From an archaeon (GTDB lineage Archaea; Iainarchaeota; Iainarchaeia; Iainarchaeales; CSSED10-239), in NCBI GenBank assembly GCA_037147375.1, contig JBAWVI010000040.1, positions 1 to 8,372 of the forward strand: a stretch of DNA of 8,372 nucleotides, written 5' to 3'. The notes below the pieces were generated by a model. The model had not been told where the DNA came from, made no database searches, and saw nothing but the letters and a program-made list of their open reading frames with translations. This document shows positions 1 through 8,372 of this stretch, one piece after another; position 1 is the stretch's first letter, and each line of letters begins with the position of its first letter. Position numbers and translations under genes: made by a program.

Positions 1-1264
1 AAAGGATCATACAATGTTTTTGTACAATCTTGATGAAGCAACAACAGCTAGAGATTCATACACATCTGATGAAATAGACGGACATTCATTATATGTTAAG
101 TTCTATGAAAGTACAGTAGCTTCAGACGCTAATTTCACAGTACAAATAGATGACTCTGATGGTAAGTACTTAATAGGCGGACAAGGAACAACTCCAACAT
201 GGGGAACTACAAATAACAACTATTACCTTGCAACAAATACAGTTAATTCAAATTCTACATACGGAATATACTATAATTTAAATATCCCTTACTATAACAA
301 TGAGGAAAAATATGTATCTTACAGTATGTTACTACAACCACAATCAATCTCTGCTGGTTTAACTGGAGATTTCAACAAGGTTAAGACAGTTGCTATGGGT
401 TTAAAGGATGCTCAAGCAGTAAAGCCTATTGGAGACACACAATATACATGGAACATATCTGGTATTGAAACATCTGGTAAAGATGCAACTGCATTCCAAG
501 ATAATGGTGACTTTGTAGGAGATAGAAACGATAGTACAACATTTGCTTCAAATTATGCAGCAGATTCATTTGAATCTATTGTAAGAATTGATGTAAATAA
601 TGCTACAAACACACACATCTACGCATATTATGATGCATACACAGGAGATATGGTAACTCTTTCAGATAATGATTTCACTGACACATACAAGCAAGTTGCT
701 TACTCAGATGGAACAAACACATTCAATTTATCTGATGAAGGAAACGATACAGATCTTGAATTCGGTTACACAACATACGGTGCATACGTATCTATCTTAG
801 ATGGATATGTTAATATGACACTTCCTGAACAACAATTAAAAGGACAAATCTTCATAGGTGGAGGAATTTCATCTGAAACAACACTTAATGGTGGAAATGT
901 TACTTTAACTACTGTTGGAACTGTTGTTACAACTGAAGATGGAGCAATGTCTGCAAAATTAGTTTCAAGTAACGTTATAGGCGGAACATCTGGAACAGCA
1001 ATAACTCCAGCTGCTTGGAATGTTGGAACTAATAGACTTGTTTACTTAGATAATGAATCACCAGCAGGTAACATGATCATCGTTGGTGGATTTGTTGTAA
1101 ACACTCTTGCAAAGACAGTATACGGCCTTGAAGACAAGCTTGTTCAATCAGGTAACTACGTTGTTGGAAGAGCAACTAACGGAAATATCATAGTTGCTGG
1201 AACAGACGCTGTTGACACAGCTTCAGCTGCAAAGGAATTAATCGCAGCAATCGAAAACATGTAA
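1..1264 (+). CDS. S-layer-type surface glycoprotein, C-terminal ~420 aa (5' end probably outside the window)
   Basis: The frame is open from nt 2 (K-D-H-T precedes the first ATG at 14). The ATG-14 product has no signal peptide, so the gene is likely 5'-partial. Composition is Thr/Asn/Gly/Tyr-rich and Cys-free. There are 10 N-x-S/T sequons (NFT, NST, NIS, NDS, NAT, NLS, NDT, NMT, NVT, NES). The C-terminus ...MIIVGGFVVNTLAK...NIIVAGTDAVDTASAAKELIAAI recalls the C-terminal domain of Methanococcales-type S-layer proteins (from memory, not searched). GC is higher than in the island genes (22/60 in line 841-900). Confidence 0.65.
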   Translation, partial: KDHTMFLYNLDEATTARDSYTSDEIDGHSLYVKFYESTVASDANFTVQIDDSDGKYLIGGQGTTPTWGTTNNNYYLATNTVNSNSTYGIYYNLNIPYYNNEEKYVSYSMLLQPQSISAGLTGDFNKVKTVAMGLKDAQAVKPIGDTQYTWNISGIETSGKDATAFQDNGDFVGDRNDSTTFASNYAADSFESIVRIDVNNATNTHIYAYYDAYTGDMVTLSDNDFTDTYKQVAYSDGTNTFNLSDEGNDTDLEFGYTTYGAYVSILDGYVNMTLPEQQLKGQIFIGGGISSETTLNGGNVTLTTVGTVVTTEDGAMSAKLVSSNVIGGTSGTAITPAAWNVGTNRLVYLDNESPAGNMIIVGGFVVNTLAKTVYGLEDKLVQSGNYVVGRATNGNIIVAGTDAVDTASAAKELIAAIENM

Positions 1265-1277
1265 ATGTTTGAGATAT

Positions 1278-1316
1278 GAAAAGGATTAAACCCCTTTTCC
1301 TTTTTTCTTTTTTTTT
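1278..1316 (+). terminator. Hairpin plus long oligo-T tract downstream of the surface-protein gene
   Basis: GAAAAGG (1278-1284) pairs with CCTTTTC (1293-1299). This is followed by CTTTTTTC and a 9-T run (1308-1316). Oligo-T tracts act as archaeal terminators. Confidence 0.6.
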
Positions 1317-1352
1317 AAATTTCCCTTGAGACGTAAGTCTAGGCTCTAATTA
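1310..1352 (+). repeat. Repeat family A, copy 1 (T-run + AAA + hairpin core TGAGACGTAAGTCTAGGC)
   Basis: About 38 of 43 aligned positions are identical to 2953-2994. The 18-nt core 1327-1344 is identical to 2969-2986. The core folds as AGAC-GTAA-GTCT (GNRA-type loop), extended by CCT/AGG arms with one bulged G. Confidence 0.85.
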
Positions 1353-1518
1353 TTTTTCTGATTATTTTGGTCAATAGCTTGATCAAAAGCAAGTGGGTTT
1401 TGTTCAACAGGTTGACCAAATAAAGACCTATATTCACCTGTTTTTAATCTGATCTTAATTAAACCACCCTTACTAATTTATACATATTACCAAGTTGACT
1501 AGTGAAAAATAGCTAATT

Positions 1519-1540
1519 ATTAACTAGTGCGCTAGTTAAT
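1519..1540. promoter_or_regulatory. 22-bp near-perfect palindrome (operator-like) upstream of ATPase-1
   Basis: ATTAACTAGTG|CGCTAGTTAAT has 10 of 11 symmetric pairs. An extra ACTAGTG half-site lies at 1498-1504. The palindrome sits just upstream of the (AT)n TATA-like tract at ~1549-1562, which is centred about 26 nt before ATG 1582. Confidence 0.45.
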
Positions 1541-1581
1541 TTAGCGATACATATATATATATCCTTAGTTATATACTATAT

Positions 1582-2913
1582 ATGGAAAGAAATAAAATAA
1601 TCCAACAGAACCCCTGGTGGGGAGAACAGGATGATTCTGATCTTTTACAAGTAAGTAAATCTAAATTTAAAATAGATAGAATAAGTTTACAGGTAGTAAA
1701 AGGAAAAGTATATCTAATCAAAGGACCAAGAAGAGTAGGTAAAACAATATACCTAAAACAAATTGCTAGAGATAATAAAGATAGAGCACTTTATATTAAT
1801 TTAGATTCTTTTTCAAACACAAAACCAAATGAATTAATAAGAGAAATAGAATCATTTATTAATCTTAAAAAAGATGCAATAATACTTATAGATGAAGTCC
1901 AAAATTTAAAAGATAATTGCTCATTTTTAAAAGCAATGTCAGATTTAAATATATTAAAAGAGGCAACAGTCTTTGTAACTGGTTCTGATCCAAGAGCAAT
2001 AGAAGTATGCAAACAAAAATTAATTGGAAGATCAGAAGAACAAAGAATAATGGCTCCACTAACCTTTAGACAGTTTTTATTAAATATAACAAAAGAAAAT
2101 AATCTAAAATTAAATAATTCATTACAAAACACAATATCAGTAAAAGATAGTAATAAAATAATAAAAGAAAAATATTTATTATTAGAACCCCATACCATAG
2201 AAATAGAAAAATATTTTGATATATATCTATTAACTGGTGGTTTCCCAGAAACTATTAATTGTTACCTAACAAATAATACAATAACTAAAAAGTACTATGA
2301 AGACTTAATACAGAAAATATTTGAAAAATTAGATAAACAAAAAACAATTTCTATTTTAAGAATACTAAACAATAGTTTGTCTAATTCATTAAAGTATTCT
2401 ACTATATCCCAAAAAGCAGAGTTATCCCCAGATACTGTTAAAAGCTATTTATTTGATTTAAGTGAGTTACTATTATTATTCGAAGTTAAAGAAAAACAAA
2501 ATGATCATCAAAAAAAATATTATTTTAAAGATCCATTTATAATCCACTCAATAAATTCATATTATTCTAATTTAGATCCATTTATGGAGTCTATAAATTA
2601 TATTTTAAATGAACAAACAAAAGGTCAATTAGTTGAAAATGTAGTTGCTGGTCATTTACATAATATTTATTTTCACAATTTACAATATTTATTTACAAAA
2701 AATAAAGAAGTTGATTTTATAATGTATAATAAAGCAATAGAAGTAAAATATAGGGCTAATATCGTCGCTCCTAATAAGATCGCAGGAGATCTAGAATATT
2801 TATTACTTACTAGATATCCTCAAGGGCTAGTTGATATAGAAAAAAATAATACATTAGCAATACCTGTAAGTTCATTTCTTGCTATGTTAGAGCCCCCAAT
2901 TAATTTTTTATAA
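1582..2913 (+). CDS. AAA+ ATPase of the AAA_14/DUF4143 (COG1373-like) type with C-terminal D..ExK nuclease-like motif (paralog 1)
   Basis: 443-aa ORF. The N-terminal NPWW motif is typical of this family. Walker A is GPRRVGKT (aa 48-55, nt 1723-1746). Walker B is IILIDEVQ (aa ~100-107). The C-terminal motif is EVDFIMYNKAIEVKY, with D378 at nt 2713-2715, E387 at 2740-2742 and K389 at 2746-2748. The family call is from memory of the domain architecture. Confidence 0.85.
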   Translation: MERNKIIQQNPWWGEQDDSDLLQVSKSKFKIDRISLQVVKGKVYLIKGPRRVGKTIYLKQIARDNKDRALYINLDSFSNTKPNELIREIESFINLKKDAIILIDEVQNLKDNCSFLKAMSDLNILKEATVFVTGSDPRAIEVCKQKLIGRSEEQRIMAPLTFRQFLLNITKENNLKLNNSLQNTISVKDSNKIIKEKYLLLEPHTIEIEKYFDIYLLTGGFPETINCYLTNNTITKKYYEDLIQKIFEKLDKQKTISILRILNNSLSNSLKYSTISQKAELSPDTVKSYLFDLSELLLLFEVKEKQNDHQKKYYFKDPFIIHSINSYYSNLDPFMESINYILNEQTKGQLVENVVAGHLHNIYFHNLQYLFTKNKEVDFIMYNKAIEVKYRANIVAPNKIAGDLEYLLLTRYPQGLVDIEKNNTLAIPVSSFLAMLEPPINFL

Positions 2914-2920
2914 TTTTTGA

Positions 2921-2959
2921 TATCAGTGACTTTACTGATAAAAGGCTTCAACTTTTTTT
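2921..2959 (+). terminator. Hairpin plus T7 run downstream of ATPase-1
   Basis: TATCAGT (2921-2927) pairs with ACTGATA (2934-2940) around a 6-nt loop. A TTTTTTT run follows at 2953-2959. The hairpin / T-run / family-A-core layout is the same as after the surface-protein gene. Confidence 0.5.
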
Positions 2960-2994
2960 AAATTCTCCTGAGACGTAAGTCTAGGCCCTAATAA
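2953..2994 (+). repeat. Repeat family A, copy 2
   Basis: TTTTTTTAAATTCTCCTGAGACGTAAGTCTAGGCCCTAATAA aligns to 1310-1352 with 4 mismatches and 1 gap. Confidence 0.85.
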
Positions 2995-3042
2995 CATCAT
3001 AGATCTATTTAAAAGGATAACTATTAGTATGTTATATACACC

Positions 3043-3066
3043 TAACATATTATTAATAATATGTTA
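3043..3066. promoter_or_regulatory. 24-bp perfect palindrome (operator-like) upstream of ATPase-2
   Basis: TAACATATTATT|AATAATATGTTA has all 12 symmetric pairs matching. An extra TATGTTA half-site lies at 3029-3035. The palindrome is 33-45 nt upstream of the candidate starts at 3099 and 3111. Confidence 0.45.
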
Positions 3067-3098
3067 CTTGCACATAACCAACTATAATGTGATATTTT

Positions 3099-4427
3099 AT
3101 GCGAGATATTATGTCTTATAATCAAAATATTTTAATTTCACAAAACCAATGGTGGAAAGAACAAATATCTATTGATTATAAAGAAAGAGATGAACATCTA
3201 AAAATATTACAATATTTAAAGGAACCTCAAATAATAGCTATAACAGGAATTAGAAGAGTTGGAAAAACAACAACCTTATATAAATTAATTGAAAAATACA
3301 TTTTAGAAGGCTTTAATAAAACAAGTATTTTATTTGTTTCTTTTGATGAACTTAAAGAAGAAAAAATAAGAAACATAATAGAAGATTATTGTATATTACA
3401 CAACAAAGATTTATTCAAAGATAATTTATTATTTTTCTTTGATGAAATTCAAAAAGTTAATAATTGGGAAGATCAATTAAAATCAATATATGATGAACAT
3501 AAACTAAAAGGAAATATTAAAATATTTATATCAGGCTCAGAATCTCTATTTATAAGAAAAAAATCAAAAGAATCTCTAGCAGGAAGAATATATGAATTTA
3601 AATTAAATCCATTATCCTTTAAAGAATATTTATCTTTTATAAATTATAATTTCGATAATATTAATCTATATAATAAAGAGTTATTGCAAAAGTTTAATGA
3701 ATATATTATTTCCCAAGGATTCCCAGAATTAATAAATAAAACAAATAAAGAAATAATAAAGAATTATACTTCTGGAATTATTGAAAAAGTAATATTTAGT
3801 GATATTGCAATTCAGTTTAAAGTCAAAAATCCATCAGTTTTAGAATCAATAGTAAACATAATCTCAAATGAACCTGGGCAGATAATAGATAACAATGGTT
3901 TAGCAAAAGAACTTGGAATATCTAGACAATTAATTTCAACATATTTAAAATATTTGTGTGATTCCTTCTTAGTTTTAAAATTATATAACTTTTCTAAAAA
4001 TCAAAGAAAATCAGAAAGAAAGCAAAAGAAGTATTATCCAATTATTTTACCAAATCAATTGGTCTTTAGTGATGATTATCTTATTAAAACAAAAGTTTTT
4101 GAAAGTATTATTGTTAGTCAATTAGAATCTAATTTTTTTTGGAGAACTCCTCAACAAAATGAAGTGGATATTATATTAACAAAAGATAATAAAATAATCC
4201 CAATAGAAATAAAATATGGTAAAATAGAAACTACAGGGCTTGTTAAGTTTTTAACAACTTTTAATTTAGATAAGGGATATATAATTAGTTATAATGAAGA
4301 AAAAATAATAACAAATAATGTTAAAATTAAAACTAATTCAGGCATAGTTAAAGACGTTAAGAAAACAATTTATGTTATTCCAGCATATAAGTTTTTGCTT
4401 CTTAAAGATAAATATTTATCAGGATAA
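3099..4427 (+). CDS. AAA+ ATPase of the AAA_14/DUF4143 (COG1373-like) type with C-terminal D..ExK nuclease-like motif (paralog 2)
   Basis: 442-aa ORF. ATG 3111 (MSYNQNILISQNQWW) aligns better with the N-terminus of paralog 1 and may be the true start. Walker A is GIRRVGKTT (aa 50-58). Walker B is LFFFDEIQ. The C-terminal motif is EVDIILTKDNKIIPIEIKY, with D357 at nt 4167-4169, E370 at 4206-4208 and K372 at 4212-4214. Confidence 0.85.
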   Translation: MRDIMSYNQNILISQNQWWKEQISIDYKERDEHLKILQYLKEPQIIAITGIRRVGKTTTLYKLIEKYILEGFNKTSILFVSFDELKEEKIRNIIEDYCILHNKDLFKDNLLFFFDEIQKVNNWEDQLKSIYDEHKLKGNIKIFISGSESLFIRKKSKESLAGRIYEFKLNPLSFKEYLSFINYNFDNINLYNKELLQKFNEYIISQGFPELINKTNKEIIKNYTSGIIEKVIFSDIAIQFKVKNPSVLESIVNIISNEPGQIIDNNGLAKELGISRQLISTYLKYLCDSFLVLKLYNFSKNQRKSERKQKKYYPIILPNQLVFSDDYLIKTKVFESIIVSQLESNFFWRTPQQNEVDIILTKDNKIIPIEIKYGKIETTGLVKFLTTFNLDKGYIISYNEEKIITNNVKIKTNSGIVKDVKKTIYVIPAYKFLLLKDKYLSG

Positions 4428-4437
4428 AGAATGGTTC

Positions 4438-4482
4438 TTTAATGAAGCTTGGCCAGCTACCCCCCCGAAAGGAATATATTTA
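4438..4482 (+). promoter_or_regulatory. Repeat family B, copy 1: GC-rich 33-mer fused to a BRE/TATA-like box, upstream of the RhuM gene
   Basis: TTTAATGAAGCTTGGCCAGCTACCCCCCCGAAA (4438-4470) is 31/33 identical to 5529-5561. Its 3' end, CCGAAAGG + AATATATTTA, resembles an archaeal BRE (CGAAA-type) plus TATA box. It lies about 31-40 nt before ATG 4513. Confidence 0.6.
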
Positions 4483-4512
4483 CAATTTACACTAATATAT
4501 GTGTGATTGTAC

Positions 4513-5523
4513 ATGAATAAGGAAATTATATCTGAAAAAAATAGCTTTTTACTTTATAAATCTCCTACTGGAGAAATAAAAATAGACGTATTTTTACATG
4601 ATGAAACAATTTGGTTGACCCAAAAGAAAATAGCAGAATTATTTAGTGTAGAAACAAATACAATTAACTATCATTTAAAAGAAATTTTTAAATCAAAAGA
4701 ATTAGATGAAAATTCAACTATTCGAAAATTTCGAATAGTTCAAAAAGAAGGTTTAAGAGAAGTAGAAAGAGAAGTAGAATTATATAATTTAGATGTAATT
4801 ATTTCTGTAGGATACAGAGTTAATTCTTCAAAAGCAACTCAATTCAGAATTTGGGCAAATAAAATTTTAAAAGAATATATAATTAAAGGATTTGCTATAG
4901 ATGATTATAGATTAAAGAATCCAAATTATTTTATAAATGATTATTTTAACGAACTTCTTGAAAGAATAAGGTCAATTAGAACTAGTGAAAGAAGGATTTA
5001 TCAAAAAATAACAGATATTTTTGCAGAATGCAGTATTGATTATGATTCTAATTCTAAGATTACAAAAGATTTCTATGCTACAGTTCAAAATAAATTTCAT
5101 TATGCAATTACAGGAAGTACAGCTTCAGAAATTATTTTTAATAAATCAGATGCAAAAAAAGTAAATATGGGTTTAACAACTTGGAGAAATGCACCAACTG
5201 GTAAAATTTTAAAATCAGATGTAATTATTGCTAAAAATTATCTTCAAGAAAAAGAGATTAAACAACTCGAGAGAACAGTATCTAGTTTTTTTGATTATAT
5301 TGAGAGAATTGTGGAAAGTAAGAAACTAATGTATATGGAAGATTTAGCAGAAAGTGTTAATAAATTTTTAGAATTTAATGAATATAAAAAGCTAAAAGAT
5401 AAAGGTAAAATTTCTTTTAAAAATGCAGAAAATAAAGCAATCAAAGAATACACTAAATTTAATAAGACTCAAATAATCGAATCTGACTTTGATAAATTTT
5501 CAAAGCGTTTATTAAATAAATAA
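4513..5523 (+). CDS. rhuM: RhuM-family (Virulence_RhuM) protein
   Basis: The ORF track starts at TTG 4507, but ATG 4513 (MNKEII...) is the more likely start. The N-terminal half (LLYKSPTGEIKIDVFLHDETIWLTQKKIAELFSVETNTINYHLKEIFKSKEL...LYNLDVIISVGYRVNSSKATQFRIWANKILKEYIIKGF) matches the conserved RhuM signature as I remember it. The tail is helical and Lys/Glu-rich. Confidence 0.85.
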   Translation: MNKEIISEKNSFLLYKSPTGEIKIDVFLHDETIWLTQKKIAELFSVETNTINYHLKEIFKSKELDENSTIRKFRIVQKEGLREVEREVELYNLDVIISVGYRVNSSKATQFRIWANKILKEYIIKGFAIDDYRLKNPNYFINDYFNELLERIRSIRTSERRIYQKITDIFAECSIDYDSNSKITKDFYATVQNKFHYAITGSTASEIIFNKSDAKKVNMGLTTWRNAPTGKILKSDVIIAKNYLQEKEIKQLERTVSSFFDYIERIVESKKLMYMEDLAESVNKFLEFNEYKKLKDKGKISFKNAENKAIKEYTKFNKTQIIESDFDKFSKRLLNK

Positions 5524-5528
5524 TATAT

Positions 5529-5571
5529 TTTAATGATGCTTGGCCAGCTACCCTCCCGAAAAGTATATACA
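5529..5571 (+). promoter_or_regulatory. Repeat family B, copy 2: same 33-mer plus BRE/TATA-like box, upstream of the ORF6N gene
   Basis: TTTAATGATGCTTGGCCAGCTACCCTCCCGAAA (5529-5561) is followed by AG + TATATACA (5564-5571). The TATA centre lies about 27 nt before ATG 5595, consistent with a leaderless transcript. Confidence 0.6.
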
Positions 5572-5594
5572 CGACCATTTCTATAATATATCTG

Positions 5595-5858
5595 ATGATT
5601 ATACGAATGATAGGAAATAATTTAATTACTCAGGAGAACATAAAATATAAAATTTATAAAATCAGAGATACCCAAGTTATGCTTGATAGAGACTTAGCTA
5701 ACCTATATGAAATAGATGCTATACGTTTGCGTGAGCAAGTGAAAAGAAATATTGCAAGATTTACAAATAAGTTTATGTTTCAATTGAATCTTGTTGAAAT
5801 TGATTTCATGGTATCACAAAATGTGATACCAAGTTTAAAGAAGTTAGCTATCTTGTGA
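5595..5858 (+). CDS. ORF6N (KilA-N-like) domain protein, apparently 3'-truncated or scrambled (possible pseudogene)
   Basis: IYKIRDTQVMLDRDLANLYEIDAIRLREQVKRNIARFTNKFMFQL matches the ORF6N core pattern (..R...VMLD.DLA.LY.V....L...VKRN..RF...FMFQL). The ORF ends at TGA 5856-5858. The next 17 in-frame codons (SQIVTTNLGWDGVPYTP, stop at 5910-5912) resemble the usual family continuation (..SQIVTS..GG....PY.FT..) better than the actual tail VSQNVIPSLKKLAIL does. Confidence 0.7.
   Translation: MIIRMIGNNLITQENIKYKIYKIRDTQVMLDRDLANLYEIDAIRLREQVKRNIARFTNKFMFQLNLVEIDFMVSQNVIPSLKKLAIL
5809..5831. repeat. 23-nt perfect hairpin/palindrome TGGTATCACA-AAA-TGTGATACCA inside the ORF6N 3' end
   Basis: All 10 arm pairs match. 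It shares the TCACA/TGTGA core with the downstream 13-mers. Confidence 0.8.
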
Positions 5859-5878
5859 TCACAAATTGTGACCACAAA
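5853..5878. repeat. Tandem 13-mer x2 (TTGTGATCACAAA / TTGTGACCACAAA), each itself palindromic
   Basis: The two units are 12/13 identical. 5853-5864 (TTGTGATCACAA) is a perfect 12-bp palindrome. 5859-5871 (TCACAA-A-TTGTGA) forms a second, overlapping palindrome. The array spans the ORF6N stop codon. Confidence 0.8.
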
Positions 5879-5891
5879 TTTAGGATGGGAT

Positions 5892-5908
5892 GGGGTGCCT
5901 TACACCCC
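5892..5908 (+). terminator. GC-rich hairpin GGGGTG-CCTTA-CACCCC followed by TTAAATTTA
   Basis: A 6-bp G/C-rich stem in an otherwise ~20% GC region, at the end of the ORF6N remnant frame. A terminator role is inferred only. Confidence 0.3.
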
Positions 5909-5935
5909 TTAAATTTATAGTCTAAATGCAACTCA

Positions 5936-5943
5936 TTTATAAA
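5936..5943 (+). promoter_or_regulatory. TATA box (TTTATAAA) for the wHTH-NTase operon
   Basis: Near-consensus archaeal TATA centred about 26 nt upstream of ATG 5966, implying a leaderless mRNA. ATGCAACT occurs on both sides of it (5926-5933 and 5966-5973). Confidence 0.5.
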
Positions 5944-5965
5944 CCTTTAGCACCACAATATAATT

Positions 5966-6844
5966 ATGCAACTAACAAAGAATGAATTAAGTTGTTTTTT
6001 AGAGATTTTTTCAAATAAACTTACTCCAAAGGAACTATCAAGCAAATTTAAGAAAAGTAAATATCAAATATATAGATATATCTCTAATCTACAAAAATTT
6101 GGTTTGATTACTAAACTCGAACATAGATACCTAGAACCAAGTAAATCAATTCATGCAATTAAACTTGGATTACTATTACAAAAACATCCAGAGATAATAC
6201 ACATATTATCTGATTCTGGATTAGATGTTCTATCTAAACTTCTAATACCTCTAACCATTAATCAATTATCTCTAGAAACTAAATTAAAATCAATAACAAT
6301 ATATAAAATTATAAATAATGCAAAACAAATGTCTATTGTAAGAAAAGAAGAAAAGAAATATTTAATTAATAAACTAATTTGGAAAGACTTATATGAATTT
6401 TTAAATGAATACAATACATTTAATCAAACGATAGATTCTCGTGTACCTGTTAGTTCAAAAATATATTATTCTGATAAAAATGAAGTTATTTTTTCCACAT
6501 TAAAAGAATTACCAAATTATAAAAAAACATCCTTTTCTGTTTTTGTAAACTATGGTTTAGATTTAGGATCAAATACTTATTATTACACAACCAAACAAAA
6601 AAATACACAAAACATAGATGAAGTTGTTTTAGATACTTTAAAAGTATTAGAAAAGGATATGGATTATCATGATTTAATATACTTATCTTTACTTTATTTA
6701 AAGTATAAACCAAAACTAAAATCAATCACACACCCAATACTTGAAAACATTAAACTAATATTAACTGGTCTAAAAATAGATAACTATCCAAGTCTAATTG
6801 AAATAAAAGAAAAAGCAGAACAATATAATATAAAAATAGATTAA
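5966..6844 (+). CDS. Winged-helix (wHTH) DNA-binding protein, candidate AbiEi-like antitoxin/regulator
   Basis: 292-aa ORF. There are two HTH-like segments (LTPKELSSKFKKSKYQIYRYISNLQKFGLITK and LTINQLSLETKLKSITIYKIINNAKQMSIVRK) followed by a ~150-aa C-terminal domain. Its stop lies 2 nt before the start of the NTase gene. The functional call rests on architecture and context, not on demonstrated homology. Confidence 0.6.
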   Translation: MQLTKNELSCFLEIFSNKLTPKELSSKFKKSKYQIYRYISNLQKFGLITKLEHRYLEPSKSIHAIKLGLLLQKHPEIIHILSDSGLDVLSKLLIPLTINQLSLETKLKSITIYKIINNAKQMSIVRKEEKKYLINKLIWKDLYEFLNEYNTFNQTIDSRVPVSSKIYYSDKNEVIFSTLKELPNYKKTSFSVFVNYGLDLGSNTYYYTTKQKNTQNIDEVVLDTLKVLEKDMDYHDLIYLSLLYLKYKPKLKSITHPILENIKLILTGLKIDNYPSLIEIKEKAEQYNIKID

Positions 6845-6846
6845 TA

Positions 6847-7506
6847 ATGATAGATGATATAATTCAAATAGATAATCTATTTCAGGAAATTGATTTGCAC
6901 ATAGATGCTAAAGTTAATATCTATCTTATTGGTGGTGTAGTTTTATTAACTAGAAATTTAAGAAAAGTTACTAAAGATATTGATGCAATCGTTGCATCAA
7001 AAAAAGATTATCAAATATTAAAAACAGTATTTACTAAATTATTGTTTACTGAAAGTAAACCAACAAAAGAGTACAGTCGTCTTAACTTAAGTCAAATATT
7101 TATTAGAAAGGATTATAGAGTTGATTTATTTGAAAAGGTAGTTTGCAAACAACTCGCATTAAGTAAGAATATGATTTCTCGTGCTAAATTATACAAAAAA
7201 TATAATCAAATATCTGTGTATTTTTGTTCAGACGAAGATATTTTTATATTTAAATCAATTACTGATAGGAACGGAGATGTAATTGATTGTATTGGGCTTG
7301 CAGAAAAAAGAATAGATTGGAAAATAATACTTAATGAAATAAAATATCAAATTCAATTAAGTGGAAATGAAATATGGATAACCTTCTTTGAAGAGAGATT
7401 AAATTTAATGGAAGATAAAGGTCTTGTTATTCCAATTATAAAAGAAGTTAGAAAGTTATCTGAAAAATATTATCTTGAACTTGAAAAGCAATTAAATAAT
7501 AAATAA
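6847..7506 (+). CDS. Pol-beta-fold nucleotidyltransferase, candidate AbiEii-like toxin
   Basis: 219-aa ORF. The NTase signature is LIGGVVLLTRNLRKVTKDIDAIV (G29-G30 ... D44-x-D46, nt 6931-6984). A candidate third acidic residue lies in YRVDLFE. A downstream FKSITDRNGDVIDCIGL motif resembles the K..(A)..R..D..D motif of the AbiEii/DUF1814-type NTases. The gene is translationally coupled to the upstream wHTH gene (TAATAATG). Confidence 0.7.
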   Translation: MIDDIIQIDNLFQEIDLHIDAKVNIYLIGGVVLLTRNLRKVTKDIDAIVASKKDYQILKTVFTKLLFTESKPTKEYSRLNLSQIFIRKDYRVDLFEKVVCKQLALSKNMISRAKLYKKYNQISVYFCSDEDIFIFKSITDRNGDVIDCIGLAEKRIDWKIILNEIKYQIQLSGNEIWITFFEERLNLMEDKGLVIPIIKEVRKLSEKYYLELEKQLNNK

Positions 7507-7519
7507 GGATACTATGCAT

Positions 7520-7537
7520 TTTCCAGACGTCTGGAAA
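7520..7537. terminator. 18-bp perfect palindrome TTTCCAGAC|GTCTGGAAA between convergent genes
   Basis: All 9 symmetric pairs match. It lies between the NTase stop (7506) and the stop of the - strand ATPase (7565), so it is a likely bidirectional terminator hairpin. Confidence 0.55.
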
Positions 7538-7564
7538 TTTGTAGTCATTTATTAGATAATTATT

Positions 7565-8372
7565 TTATTCTAAATCAGCAGCAATATCGCTTGCATCTTT
7601 CTTTTCTTCGTTTATTCTCTTAACTATCTTTGGAGTAAAGGAATCATGATACCATTTCTTCCAGATTGTTGTTATATCATTGTAATCTATTTTTCCTTTT
7701 TCTTCAAGATAATCTTCTTTTAAAAGAAGTAACTTGTTGTGAGCAAATGCAGTGTTTTCTGCTTCAAGTAATTCTATACAATCCATTTCGTGTGCAACTT
7801 CTACTTGATATTCCTTTTCAGTTGCAAGCATCTTAATATTATCCCAAACCTCTTCTATTCCCATTCCTGAAAGACGACAGATTTTTGAAAAGAGCTCAGA
7901 ATCCTTAAGTGCATCCTCGTTTAAGATTAATGCATCTTTTCCAGCATCATACTCTAAGAGATTTAGAAGACCACCCTCAGCATCAGGATCTTTATTCCAA
8001 TGCTTTCTAACTTCTGTTATTTGAACAACTCTACGGTGGCTCTTAAGTGAACCTTTAAACCTAATTGGCTTTGCAACAACAACCAAGTCTGTTGCCTTAA
8101 ATGAAGTAGTAGGCACCCCTAAATCATTAACAACTCTATCCCATACAGCATAAGCAGAGTCAGCATGTATTGTTCCCATAACAACGTTACCTGCTGCACC
8201 AATTCTCATAGCTTCATATAGTACTTTAGCTTCCACAGATCTAACTTCACCAACAATAAGCGCTGAATCTCCAAGTCTTAATGCAGTTCTAAGTGCGTCC
8301 TCTGGCTTAACTTCTGCGCTCTCTTCGCTTGCACCAATAGCAGACCTTGTCTTTAATCTTTGAATTAGTTTC
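7565..8372 (-). CDS. Type II/IV secretion-system family ATPase (GspE/VirB11/FlaI-like; archaeal pilus or archaellum type), C-terminal part; N-terminus outside the window
   Basis: The ORF track starts at an internal GTG (8236), but the frame stays open to the window edge. I translated upstream ...KLIQRLKTRSAIGASEESAEVKPEDALRTALRLGDSALIVGEVRSVEAKVLYEAMRIGAAGNVVMGTIHADSA.... The LIVGEVR (Walker B/Asp-box region) and GTIHA (His box) are characteristic of this family. GC is higher (22/60 in line 8041-8100). Confidence 0.75.
   Translation of the reverse strand, partial: KLIQRLKTRSAIGASEESAEVKPEDALRTALRLGDSALIVGEVRSVEAKVLYEAMRIGAAGNVVMGTIHADSAYAVWDRVVNDLGVPTTSFKATDLVVVAKPIRFKGSLKSHRRVVQITEVRKHWNKDPDAEGGLLNLLEYDAGKDALILNEDALKDSELFSKICRLSGMGIEEVWDNIKMLATEKEYQVEVAHEMDCIELLEAENTAFAHNKLLLLKEDYLEEKGKIDYNDITTIWKKWYHDSFTPKIVKRINEEKKDASDIAADLE

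Follow-up and report, generated by a model that had tools for sequence, protein, structure and literature searches.

A conserved hotspot between S-layer and secretion-ATPase genes in a DPANN archaeon, with candidate-defence cargo probably shuffled by host recombination

How are candidate-defence genes gained, lost and exchanged in a very small genome, at a locus where nothing that would move them is in sight? DPANN archaea have tiny genomes and are mostly uncultured, and the locus described here offers a nucleotide-resolution view of such turnover in one of them. The window, by which we mean the whole stretch of DNA analysed, comprises 8,372 nucleotides (nt) of contig JBAWVI010000040.1 (assembly GCA_037147375.1), from a member of the Iainarchaeota (CSSED10-239). 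Here we report that the region from 1.3 to 7.55 kb of this window is the cargo of a conserved chromosomal hotspot between convergent S-layer and T2SSE (type IV pilus/secretion ATPase) genes. We suggest, with a probability of about 0.72, that the cargo is shuffled by homologous and illegitimate recombination of the host, with two families of short repeats, here called D2 and D3, serving both as promoter-like modules and as substrates.

Between the S-layer fragment, which runs to position 1264 on the plus strand, and the secretion-ATPase fragment, which starts at 7565 on the minus strand, lie six co-directional open reading frames (ORFs):

1–1264, plus strand: 3′ part of the S-layer gene, the left conserved flank (weak S_layer_C match; the full-length 842-aa gene in L083 matches PF05124)
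1582–2913, plus strand: ATPase1, an AAA_14 + DUF4143 (PD-(D/E)XK) protein of PDC-S01 type (Pfam, PADLOC, intact motifs)
3099–4427, plus strand: ATPase2, a second PDC-S01-type ATPase-nuclease (Pfam, PADLOC; gene callers start at the ATG at 3111)
4507–5523, plus strand: RhuM-family protein (PDC-S05), predicted toxin or DNA-binding effector (Pfam, PADLOC; likely start at the ATG at 4513)
5595–5912, plus strand: ORF6N pseudogene remnant (truncation common to 5 strains)
5966–6844, plus strand: partner protein in which two winged-helix domains in tandem are joined by a conserved C-terminal domain, putative antitoxin or regulator (TrmB winged helix-turn-helix (wHTH) match; AlphaFold2 model)
6847–7506, plus strand: DUF6036 minimal nucleotidyltransferase (NTase), putative toxin (Pfam; GG..DID motif)
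7565–8372, minus strand: 3′ part of the T2SSE ATPase gene, the right conserved flank (translation; PF00437 on the full 775-aa gene)

The original prediction, made from the letters of the window, had described six co-directional genes of these families in a low-GC island, each with its own promoter or operator-like element. Pfam agrees on the families (AAA_14+DUF4143 twice, Virulence_RhuM, ORF6N, TrmB-type wHTH and DUF6036 NTase), and a search of NCBIfam added nothing useful; the number of intact genes is five, the sixth, ORF6N, being a truncated pseudogene. Nor does every gene have its own promoter, as the wHTH and NTase genes lie 2 nt apart and thus form one operon. The same six ORFs are present in at least seven assemblies of the window species at 98.3–100% identity, and one contig with this arrangement is ENA ERZ4223250 NODE_6737 (L082). 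Exact matching of proteins reached this contig with ATPase1 and wHTH and gave nothing for the S-layer fragment, RhuM (TTG start) or NTase. A tRNA scan of the window found none, and neither an integrase nor a transposase was found in the window or in 16–19 kb contigs of the same species, as had been anticipated for the window.

On recounting, the G+C of the six 60-nt lines on which the low-GC claim was founded came to 22, 22, 9, 13, 9 and 14, exactly the hand counts. Maximum-likelihood segmentation with two change points places compositional steps at ~1440 and ~7732 (log-likelihood gain 58.9), giving a GC of 0.351, 0.240 and 0.389 for the left, island and right segments, and a sliding 300-nt profile concurs with this fit; the right-hand step falls ~170 nt within the 3′ end of the secretion ATPase gene. 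The island is AT-shifted and deviates in composition from the genome, but the flanks exaggerate the step. Core genes of the same species have a GC of 0.28–0.33 (third-position GC, GC3, 0.14–0.20) and island genes 0.21–0.24 (GC3 0.11–0.14); the S-layer gene, at 0.36–0.38, lies above the genome mean, so that the true deficit of the island is ~6–8 points and not ~13. Accessory genes just as AT-rich occur elsewhere in the genome, namely a PIN-like DUF3368 gene and a third PDC-S01 ATPase gene upstream of the S-layer gene.

The secretion-ATPase fragment, used as a query, retrieved 184 related loci, essentially all from Iainarchaeota/Diapherotrites (DPANN), with Ca. Forterrea multitransposorum matching at 77%; a methanogen as source, which the low GC had suggested, was rejected on this result. 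Of the 18 closest species, 12 have an S-layer gene that follows the stop codon of the secretion ATPase at a distance of 1.5–6 kb, and the low-GC genes in this interval differ in nearly every one of these species. Cargo likewise differs among two sister lineages (A and B, below) and 16 further species while the flanks are conserved, which agrees with the expectation that the content of the interval would vary across related genomes. Relatives carry PDC-S01-type ATPases, Bro-N/PDC-S13 proteins, ORF6N proteins and unknowns, and bona fide AbiEi/AbiEii pairs occupy the same hotspot in L010 and L014.

Three further observations concern the surroundings of the interval. The long contigs L001, L003, L096, L097 and L098 stop inside it or at its edge, as expected if strain-level heterogeneity breaks assemblies there. 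L005 has, at 13232–13588 in the interval from secretion ATPase to S-layer gene, a gene for an archaeal type IV pilin with a class III signal peptide, which supports the flanking ATPase as a pilus-assembly ATPase. On its other side, too, the S-layer gene of this species has accessory-rich surroundings (L083, 356–5175, upstream of the gene): a DUF3368(PIN)/UPF0175 pair resembling a toxin–antitoxin system and the third PDC-S01 ATPase (419 aa, PADLOC E=2e-109), both of them low in GC.

The evidence that carries our explanation comes from comparing the window with its sister lineages, whose gene orders are as follows (Sec, secretion ATPase; ORF6N′, the remnant):

Lineage W (the window): S-layer, D3a, ATPase1, D3b, ATPase2, D2a, RhuM, D2b, ORF6N′, wHTH, NTase, Sec
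Lineage A (L001/L093), the closest sister: S-layer, D3, ATPase2, Sec
Lineage B (L096–98): S-layer, D3, left half of D2, wHTH, NTase, Sec

Lineages A and B hold complementary subsets of the window content, A only ATPase2 and B only wHTH and NTase, and the difference between W and A resolves into two segments, given here with the hairpin 3′ of the NTase gene:

1346–2987, plus strand: indel A, 1642 bp, ATPase1 and one D3 (blastn against L001/L093); absent from lineage A
4420–7554, plus strand: indel B, 3135 bp, RhuM to NTase; absent from lineage A
7520–7537, plus strand: terminator-like hairpin 3′ of the NTase gene (terminator scan)

The D3 copies coincide exactly with the boundaries of the ATPase1 indel. 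The single D3 of lineage A aligns to both window copies, and the W–A difference amounts to one D3 plus 1602 bp exactly. Orthologs of ATPase1 (52–76% identity) are present in the same interval in L005, L008, L010, L014 and L018, and given their synteny in these five more distant species, the lack of ATPase1 in lineage A probably reflects a D3×D3 deletion rather than an insertion in the window. At indel B the junction shows only ATATTTAT / TATTTTAT microhomology, and the stop codons of ATPase2 and Sec overlap by 9 nt in lineage A. In lineage B, D3 directly adjoins the left half of a D2 element. Lineage B is also without the Bro-N gene that W and A carry between an RPA-like gene and MCM (L096 6829–6950 compared with L088 10883–11783); it keeps that gene's D2 copy (D2c), now an orphan promoter, and ~20 nt of the Bro-N 3′ end, a remnant that marks this loss as a deletion.

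Divergence between W and A points to exchange as well as loss. ATPase2 has a synonymous divergence (dS) of 0.22 and the final 94 codons of the S-layer gene one of 0.19, compared with 0.96, 0.70, 0.87 and 0.61 for the adjacent core genes Sec, RPA-like, Bro-N and MCM, respectively. Sliding DNA identity shows a block of 88–98% from ~1000 to 4419, with Sec at ~84%, and the ATPase2 proteins of the two lineages are 96.6% identical. The history of this part of the island is discordant with that of the flanking core genes, subject to the effect of AT bias on dS that is weighed below, and ATPase2 together with the S-layer 3′ end looks like a segment recently exchanged between W and A.

The rest of the S-layer fragment behaves differently: positions 1–800 share 39–66% DNA identity with L093, though sister core genes share ~85%, and the last ~300 nt share 88–98%. 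The surface-exposed part of the S-layer protein seems to be hypervariable, or to have been replaced by recombination.

Could simple loss account for the same pattern? A W-like gene set may have been ancestral, with the reductive DPANN lineages A and B each deleting different parts of it. The complementary subsets in A and B, the syntenic ATPase1 orthologs, the clear deletion of Bro-N with its 3′ remnant and the decay of ORF6N all fit such a history, as do the overlapping convergent stop codons in A, which are as expected after a maximal deletion. We nonetheless consider it unlikely, because dS of ATPase2 and the S-layer 3′ end is 3–4 times below that of adjacent core genes, RhuM shares 54–62% identity with proteins from viral contigs and from satellite phages of bacteria, a duplication in L005 (below) carries diverged donor-type sequence, and cargo is unrelated between most species. 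The corresponding account of low GC, by relaxed selection and AT mutation pressure on dispensable genes, gains from the equally AT-rich accessory genes elsewhere in the genome, and we hold it similarly doubtful. Deletion from an ancestral cluster explains losses and not turnover, and it overlaps with shuffling by host recombination rather than excluding it.

The repeats themselves, with the terminator that precedes the first of them, are located as follows:

1278–1310, plus strand: terminator-like hairpin and T-run of the S-layer gene (terminator scan; kept in lineages A and B)
1311–1350, plus strand: D3a, consisting of a T-run/TTTAAAT, the invariant core TGAGACGTAAGTCTAGGC (a stem with a GUAA loop) and TAAT; left boundary of indel A
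2953–2992, plus strand: D3b (repeat comparison with D3a)
4438–4506, plus strand: D2a, upstream of RhuM, with a GC box GCTTGGCCAG, a BRE/TATA-like stretch (BRE, transcription factor B recognition element), an initiator region and a Shine-Dalgarno-like GTGAT
5529–5594, plus strand: D2b, expression module upstream of the ORF6N remnant

D3a and D3b are 88% identical over 40 nt and share an exact 18-nt core, for which 0.01 matches are expected by chance. This core is invariant in six aligned copies, including one on the unrelated contig L095, and D3 always lies 3′ of the upstream gene's terminator hairpin and T-run, 95–240 nt upstream of three orphan ATPase genes (two PDC-S01, one PDC-S27). The 18-mer has a potential 7-bp stem and a GUAA (GNRA) loop, with a folding energy of -5.7 to -6.8 kcal/mol. 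Among strains of the window species, L083/84/86 have D3a identical to D3b over 34 nt, and the window's D3a carries a variant common to lineage B and L095, a distribution that points to conversion between the two D3 copies within the species. From its motifs and position, D3 may be a promoter/operator or an RNA-level element.

D2 is more readily understood. Positions 4438–4478 and 5529–5569 are 90% identical over 41 nt, with similarity extending to ~66 nt. Alignment of eight copies gives a constant order: the GC box (GCTTGGCCAG-STACCC), GAAAGG-ATATAT (BRE/TATA-like), ~10 nt, ATAATATATGTG, then GGTGA (Shine-Dalgarno-like), 5–7 nt and an ATG, and similarity among the copies ends at this start codon. 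Four different genes follow them: RhuM, ORF6N′, Bro-N (a PDC-S13 match at E=1.5e-124) and a PDC-M21B-like minimal NTase, the last of these on the unrelated contig L095. The 10-nt GC box, with 0.10 occurrences expected by chance, is confined to D2 copies in 1.15 Mb of related loci, apart from two matches in the GC-richer locus L048. We infer that D2 is a portable promoter/5′-untranslated region (UTR) module, not a demonstrated recombination site. Neither D2 nor D3 was found in a viral collection. As known RNAs or tRNA fragments both elements were rejected, the window giving no Rfam family at E<=1 and no tRNA. A scan with a bacterial sigma-70 promoter model, the host being an archaeon, found fewer sites than in shuffled sequence.

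The spacers at 4428–4506, 5524–5594 and 5859–5965, which bear D2 or lie upstream of wHTH, have a GC of 0.35–0.37, compared with 0.21–0.24 in the surrounding genes. AT-rich genomes usually show the opposite relation, and for the D2-bearing spacers the difference suggests constraint. The end of the ORF6N remnant (CCTTACACCCC) resembles the D2 box upstream of wHTH in lineage B (13/21 identity); we speculate that this likeness could reflect a microhomology deletion.

Both ATPases retain Walker A, Walker B and the D...ExK nuclease motif, and PADLOC places them in PDC-S01 with E-values of 2e-27 and 9e-60. PDC-S01 is an ATPase fused to a PD-(D/E)XK nuclease and is enriched in Archaea (PMC12988326); DUF4143 has been classed as a predicted PD-(D/E)XK nuclease (PMC3424549). 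A literature search on DUF4143 and COG1373 found no functional work. Two inverted repeats, both of which may be operators, precede these genes:

1366–1420, unstranded: inverted repeat TTTGGTCAA...TTGACCAAA in the 230-nt spacer upstream of ATPase1 (repeat scan)
3025–3084, unstranded: 30+30-nt palindrome upstream of ATPase2 (repeat scan; conserved in lineage A)

A hidden gene or remnant was sought in the 230-nt spacer, where only an insignificant 32-aa ORF was found.

Orphan ATPase genes are also bracketed by direct repeats elsewhere in the hotspot, and there the repeats are species-specific (L010, L014, L095, L005). In L010, three copies surround two ATPase genes, and in L014 the repeat is 53 nt, 100% identical, and includes a terminator hairpin. 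A PDC-S27-type ATPase (ATPase_2+DUF234) lies between D3 and D2 copies on L095, an unrelated 4.3-kb contig (370–410 and 2000–2040), and is bracketed in addition by a 33-nt direct repeat, GACATTAAAGTATTATACTYGTTACTCCAAAAT. In L005, a 555-nt direct duplication (10475–11027 and 12799–13352) brackets the ATPase1 ortholog; it holds the last 101 secretion-ATPase codons, and its two copies agree at ~100% over 430 nt and at ~80% over a further ~120 nt, as if DNA of a related strain had been integrated by a single crossover. When 665 genes were scanned blind, flanking direct repeats were found at 4/16 ATPase genes and 5/649 others (Fisher p=2.6e-5), one of the five being the window's RhuM. In L022, a more distant Iainarchaeota genome, two genes (5330–6518; 172 and 176 aa, no Pfam match) are bracketed by 69–70-nt direct repeats of 94–100% identity, possibly another cassette-like arrangement.

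Such bracketing raises the question of whether D3, D2 or both are att-like sites of a site-specific, integron-like cassette system whose recombinase is encoded elsewhere in the genome. Co-oriented single-gene units between conserved short repeats would be expected of it, as would the 'empty' arrangement of lineage B, in which D3 abuts a D2 half-site, and D2c with no gene behind it. It would also suit the order D3, ATPase, D2 in L095 with its extra 33-nt repeat around the ATPase, the enrichment of flanking repeats at orphan ATPases and the invariant D2 and D3 cores. Yet no integrase or recombinase is encoded in the window or in the 16–19 kb of the same contigs, and the repeats of other species are unrelated in sequence, range from 33 to 555 nt and include coding sequence, which fits homologous recombination. 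Indel B has microhomology only, the Bro-N loss in B left a 3′ remnant and was an imprecise excision, and the similarity of D2 copies up to the ATG, with promoter and Shine-Dalgarno motifs, is explained more simply by a promoter. We regard a site-specific system as very unlikely. Since the repeats vary in length and sequence and no recombinase was found, host homologous recombination is favoured over a dedicated site-specific system; homologous recombination has been described for Ca. Forterrea (PMC5905446).

Based on these observations, we propose that content at the hotspot would turn over by homologous and illegitimate recombination of the host and not by an island-encoded integrase. Recombination between the D3 copies explains the presence or absence of ATPase1, and a microhomology junction that of the 3.1-kb segment from RhuM to NTase. 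The block from the S-layer 3′ end through D3 and ATPase2 was exchanged between the sister lineages long after their split. D2, with its GC box, BRE/TATA and Shine-Dalgarno motifs, would act as a self-contained promoter/5′-UTR module that abuts the ATG of four candidate-defence genes, while D3, a TATA-like motif with a palindromic or hairpin box, would have a function suggested by its position and motifs. As near-identical sequences scattered between genes, both could double as recombination substrates.

A bolder version is conceivable, though we think it distinctly improbable: D2 and D3 might be boundary elements of an undescribed DPANN defence cassette system, either independent of an integrase or served by a recombinase in trans. 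D2 would then be a 'plug-in' expression socket in which cargo is swapped precisely at the start codon, and the orphan genes for PDC-S01/PDC-S27 ATPase-nucleases would travel from genome to genome as semi-autonomous units, giving rise to long direct repeats on either side.

RhuM matches the Virulence_RhuM Pfam model over nearly its full length (E=3e-105, model positions 1–248 of 252; PADLOC E=5e-147). Proteins encoded by over 100 viral contigs and by Streptococcus satellite phages share 54–62% identity with it. A role as a toxin has been predicted for RhuM (PMC3710099), and PDC-S05 has been described as bacterial, reaching archaea through horizontal gene transfer (PMC12988326); the identity to viral and satellite-phage proteins fits this reported origin. 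A RhuM homolog adjoining the secretion ATPase in L006 (10865–11893; 54–60% identity) seems to be a split pseudogene, with 326 aa covered by tblastn and a longest ORF of 197 aa. The ORF6N remnant of the window consists of an 87-codon N-terminal domain followed by an in-frame TGA where full-length relatives (~310–320 aa) read 'ILKSQ'; 17 homologous codons (SQIVTTNLGW(D/G)GVPYT) follow the TGA before the sequence is cut off, and the defect is present in 5/5 strains examined.

RhuM, ORF6N and Bro-N are typically phage-associated, and RhuM has many relatives on viral contigs. Together with low GC and one pseudogene, this could suggest that the island began as an integrated virus or plasmid and has since decayed. 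However, no integrase, capsid, terminase or replication genes occur in the window or in the 16–19 kb contigs, neither ATPase1 nor NTase has relatives on viral contigs, D2 and D3 are absent from the viral collection, and the segments of the island have different histories. We give this origin hardly any credence, and shuffling by host recombination remains our explanation.

The remaining cargo is the wHTH–NTase module. For NTase, 55 homologs were found, most of them from DPANN and other archaea, and a 289–313-aa partner homolog stands immediately upstream of it in every context examined, one contig carrying two pairs; the pairing is conserved in L096–L101, unrelated contexts included. The AlphaFold2 model of NTase (predicted local distance difference test, pLDDT, 92.6) has as its best match in the PDB the MenT1 toxin of MenAT1 (8an5, E=1.3e-4), followed by TM1012 and ANT(2''). 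For the partner (pLDDT 90), Foldseek matches the wHTH only; Pfam gave no AbiEi match to it, and BLASTP no significant match to the AbiEi of a relative. By BLASTP against a real AbiEii, similarity of NTase is limited to the GG..DID motif. Measured against AbiE, the module has the upstream wHTH gene in a bicistronic operon; its toxin lies outside AbiEii/DUF1814, and its partner is without an AbiEi-type C-terminal domain. By analogy, the two genes most likely form a toxin–antitoxin or abortive-infection pair in the manner of AbiE or MenAT.

A number of points weigh against our reading. Three lineages cannot settle gain versus loss for each indel. The dS of wHTH and NTase between W and B, 0.38–0.41 compared with 0.71–1.03 for core genes, is also below that of the core, and dS of island genes may be depressed by extreme AT bias at third codon positions (AT3); at the S-layer 3′ end AT content is not extreme and dS is nonetheless 0.19, which this caveat leaves unexplained. 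The test for repeat enrichment involves small numbers that are phylogenetically non-independent, and it missed the cases in L014 and L005. It is motifs and position that suggest promoter and operator roles for D2 and D3, and D3 as a stable RNA structure was rejected, its hairpin energy being unremarkable (z = -1.1 and -1.9). The match of NTase to MenT1 is modest (template modelling score, TM, 0.44–0.51), the partner's C-terminal domain gave no structural match in Foldseek, and AbiEii was rejected for NTase at the family level, Pfam giving DUF6036 only and neither Pfam nor PADLOC an AbiE match. As for defence, PADLOC found only PDC-S01 and PDC-S05 candidates in the window and no validated system, and both families are 'guilt-by-embedding' candidates that have not been validated (PMC12988326).

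These points also bear on how far the original prediction of a recombination-shuffled defence islet, with gene units separated by two families of direct repeats, can be followed. Both repeat families exist, but they separate only the ATPase1 and RhuM units, and the shuffling is supported by the D3 repeats at the ATPase1 indel boundaries. Both observations that would have spoken against the prediction were contradicted: composition does step at the island's edges, and related genomes carry other gene sets. The term defence islet finds a basis in the two PADLOC candidate families and in AbiE within the relatives' interval, where alone at this locus a system of validated type occurs; for the window cargo, whose families are unvalidated, we infer a defence function from sequence.

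What makes the locus informative is that three sister lineages with complementary content and exact breakpoints provide evidence for shuffling by ordinary recombination at shared promoter-like modules. Experimental targets are supplied by a conserved, uncharacterised pair of double-wHTH and DUF6036 proteins and by two short invariant non-coding elements, D2 and D3, which are associated only with candidate-defence genes. Of all parts of the locus, the portable D2 module and the ATPase genes bracketed by repeats seem to us to deserve further work most. DPANN archaea have been reported to be enriched in AbiE and PDCs, and to depend on AbiE and compact single-gene candidates in place of CRISPR or restriction-modification systems (PMC12988326).

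Among known systems, the window proteins match PADLOC PDC-S01 (AAA_14+DUF4143, COG1373) and PDC-S05 (RhuM/ORF6N) strongly, with no difference at the family level. The wHTH–NTase module shares with AbiE (PMC3985639) and MenAT (PDB 8an5) a bicistronic layout with the wHTH gene first and a pol-beta-superfamily NTase second, as well as the catalytic hGG...DxD motif; MenT1 is the best structural match of NTase, and true AbiE pairs lie in the hotspot of relatives. It differs from AbiE in that the window NTase belongs to DUF6036 and not to DUF1814/AbiEii, and the partner has two wHTH domains and a C-terminal domain without detectable AbiEi similarity, the TM score being only ~0.45–0.5.

Integron arrays likewise consist of co-oriented single-gene units with repeated short elements between them, and in both cases the presence or absence of units coincides with repeats. 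The window departs from them in several ways. No IntI is encoded in it or in the 16–19 kb contigs, and no attC sites were recognised, as judged from the sequence and position of D2 and D3, no dedicated attC model having been run. D2 and D3 are direct repeats of the same sequence, whereas integrons have cassette-specific imperfect palindromes. Most integron cassettes have no promoter, whereas D2 lies 5′ of genes, brings a promoter with it and stops at the ATG. Other indels of the hotspot use microhomology or long homology.

The closest parallel is with the defence-island hotspots found between core genes in bacterial pan-genomes, where variable cargo is already well established and whose known picture this locus extends; PMC12988326 treats defence islands in general. 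Common to both are fixed core flanks with defence or toxin–antitoxin-type cargo varying between close relatives, compositional deviation and evidence for recent exchange. The archaeal interval is very small (1.5–6 kb) and sits in a DPANN genome of roughly the 1-Mb class; it is without integrase, transposase or tRNA, and its cargo consists almost entirely of unvalidated single-gene candidates. Its junctions, in further distinction, use shared intergenic promoter-like modules.

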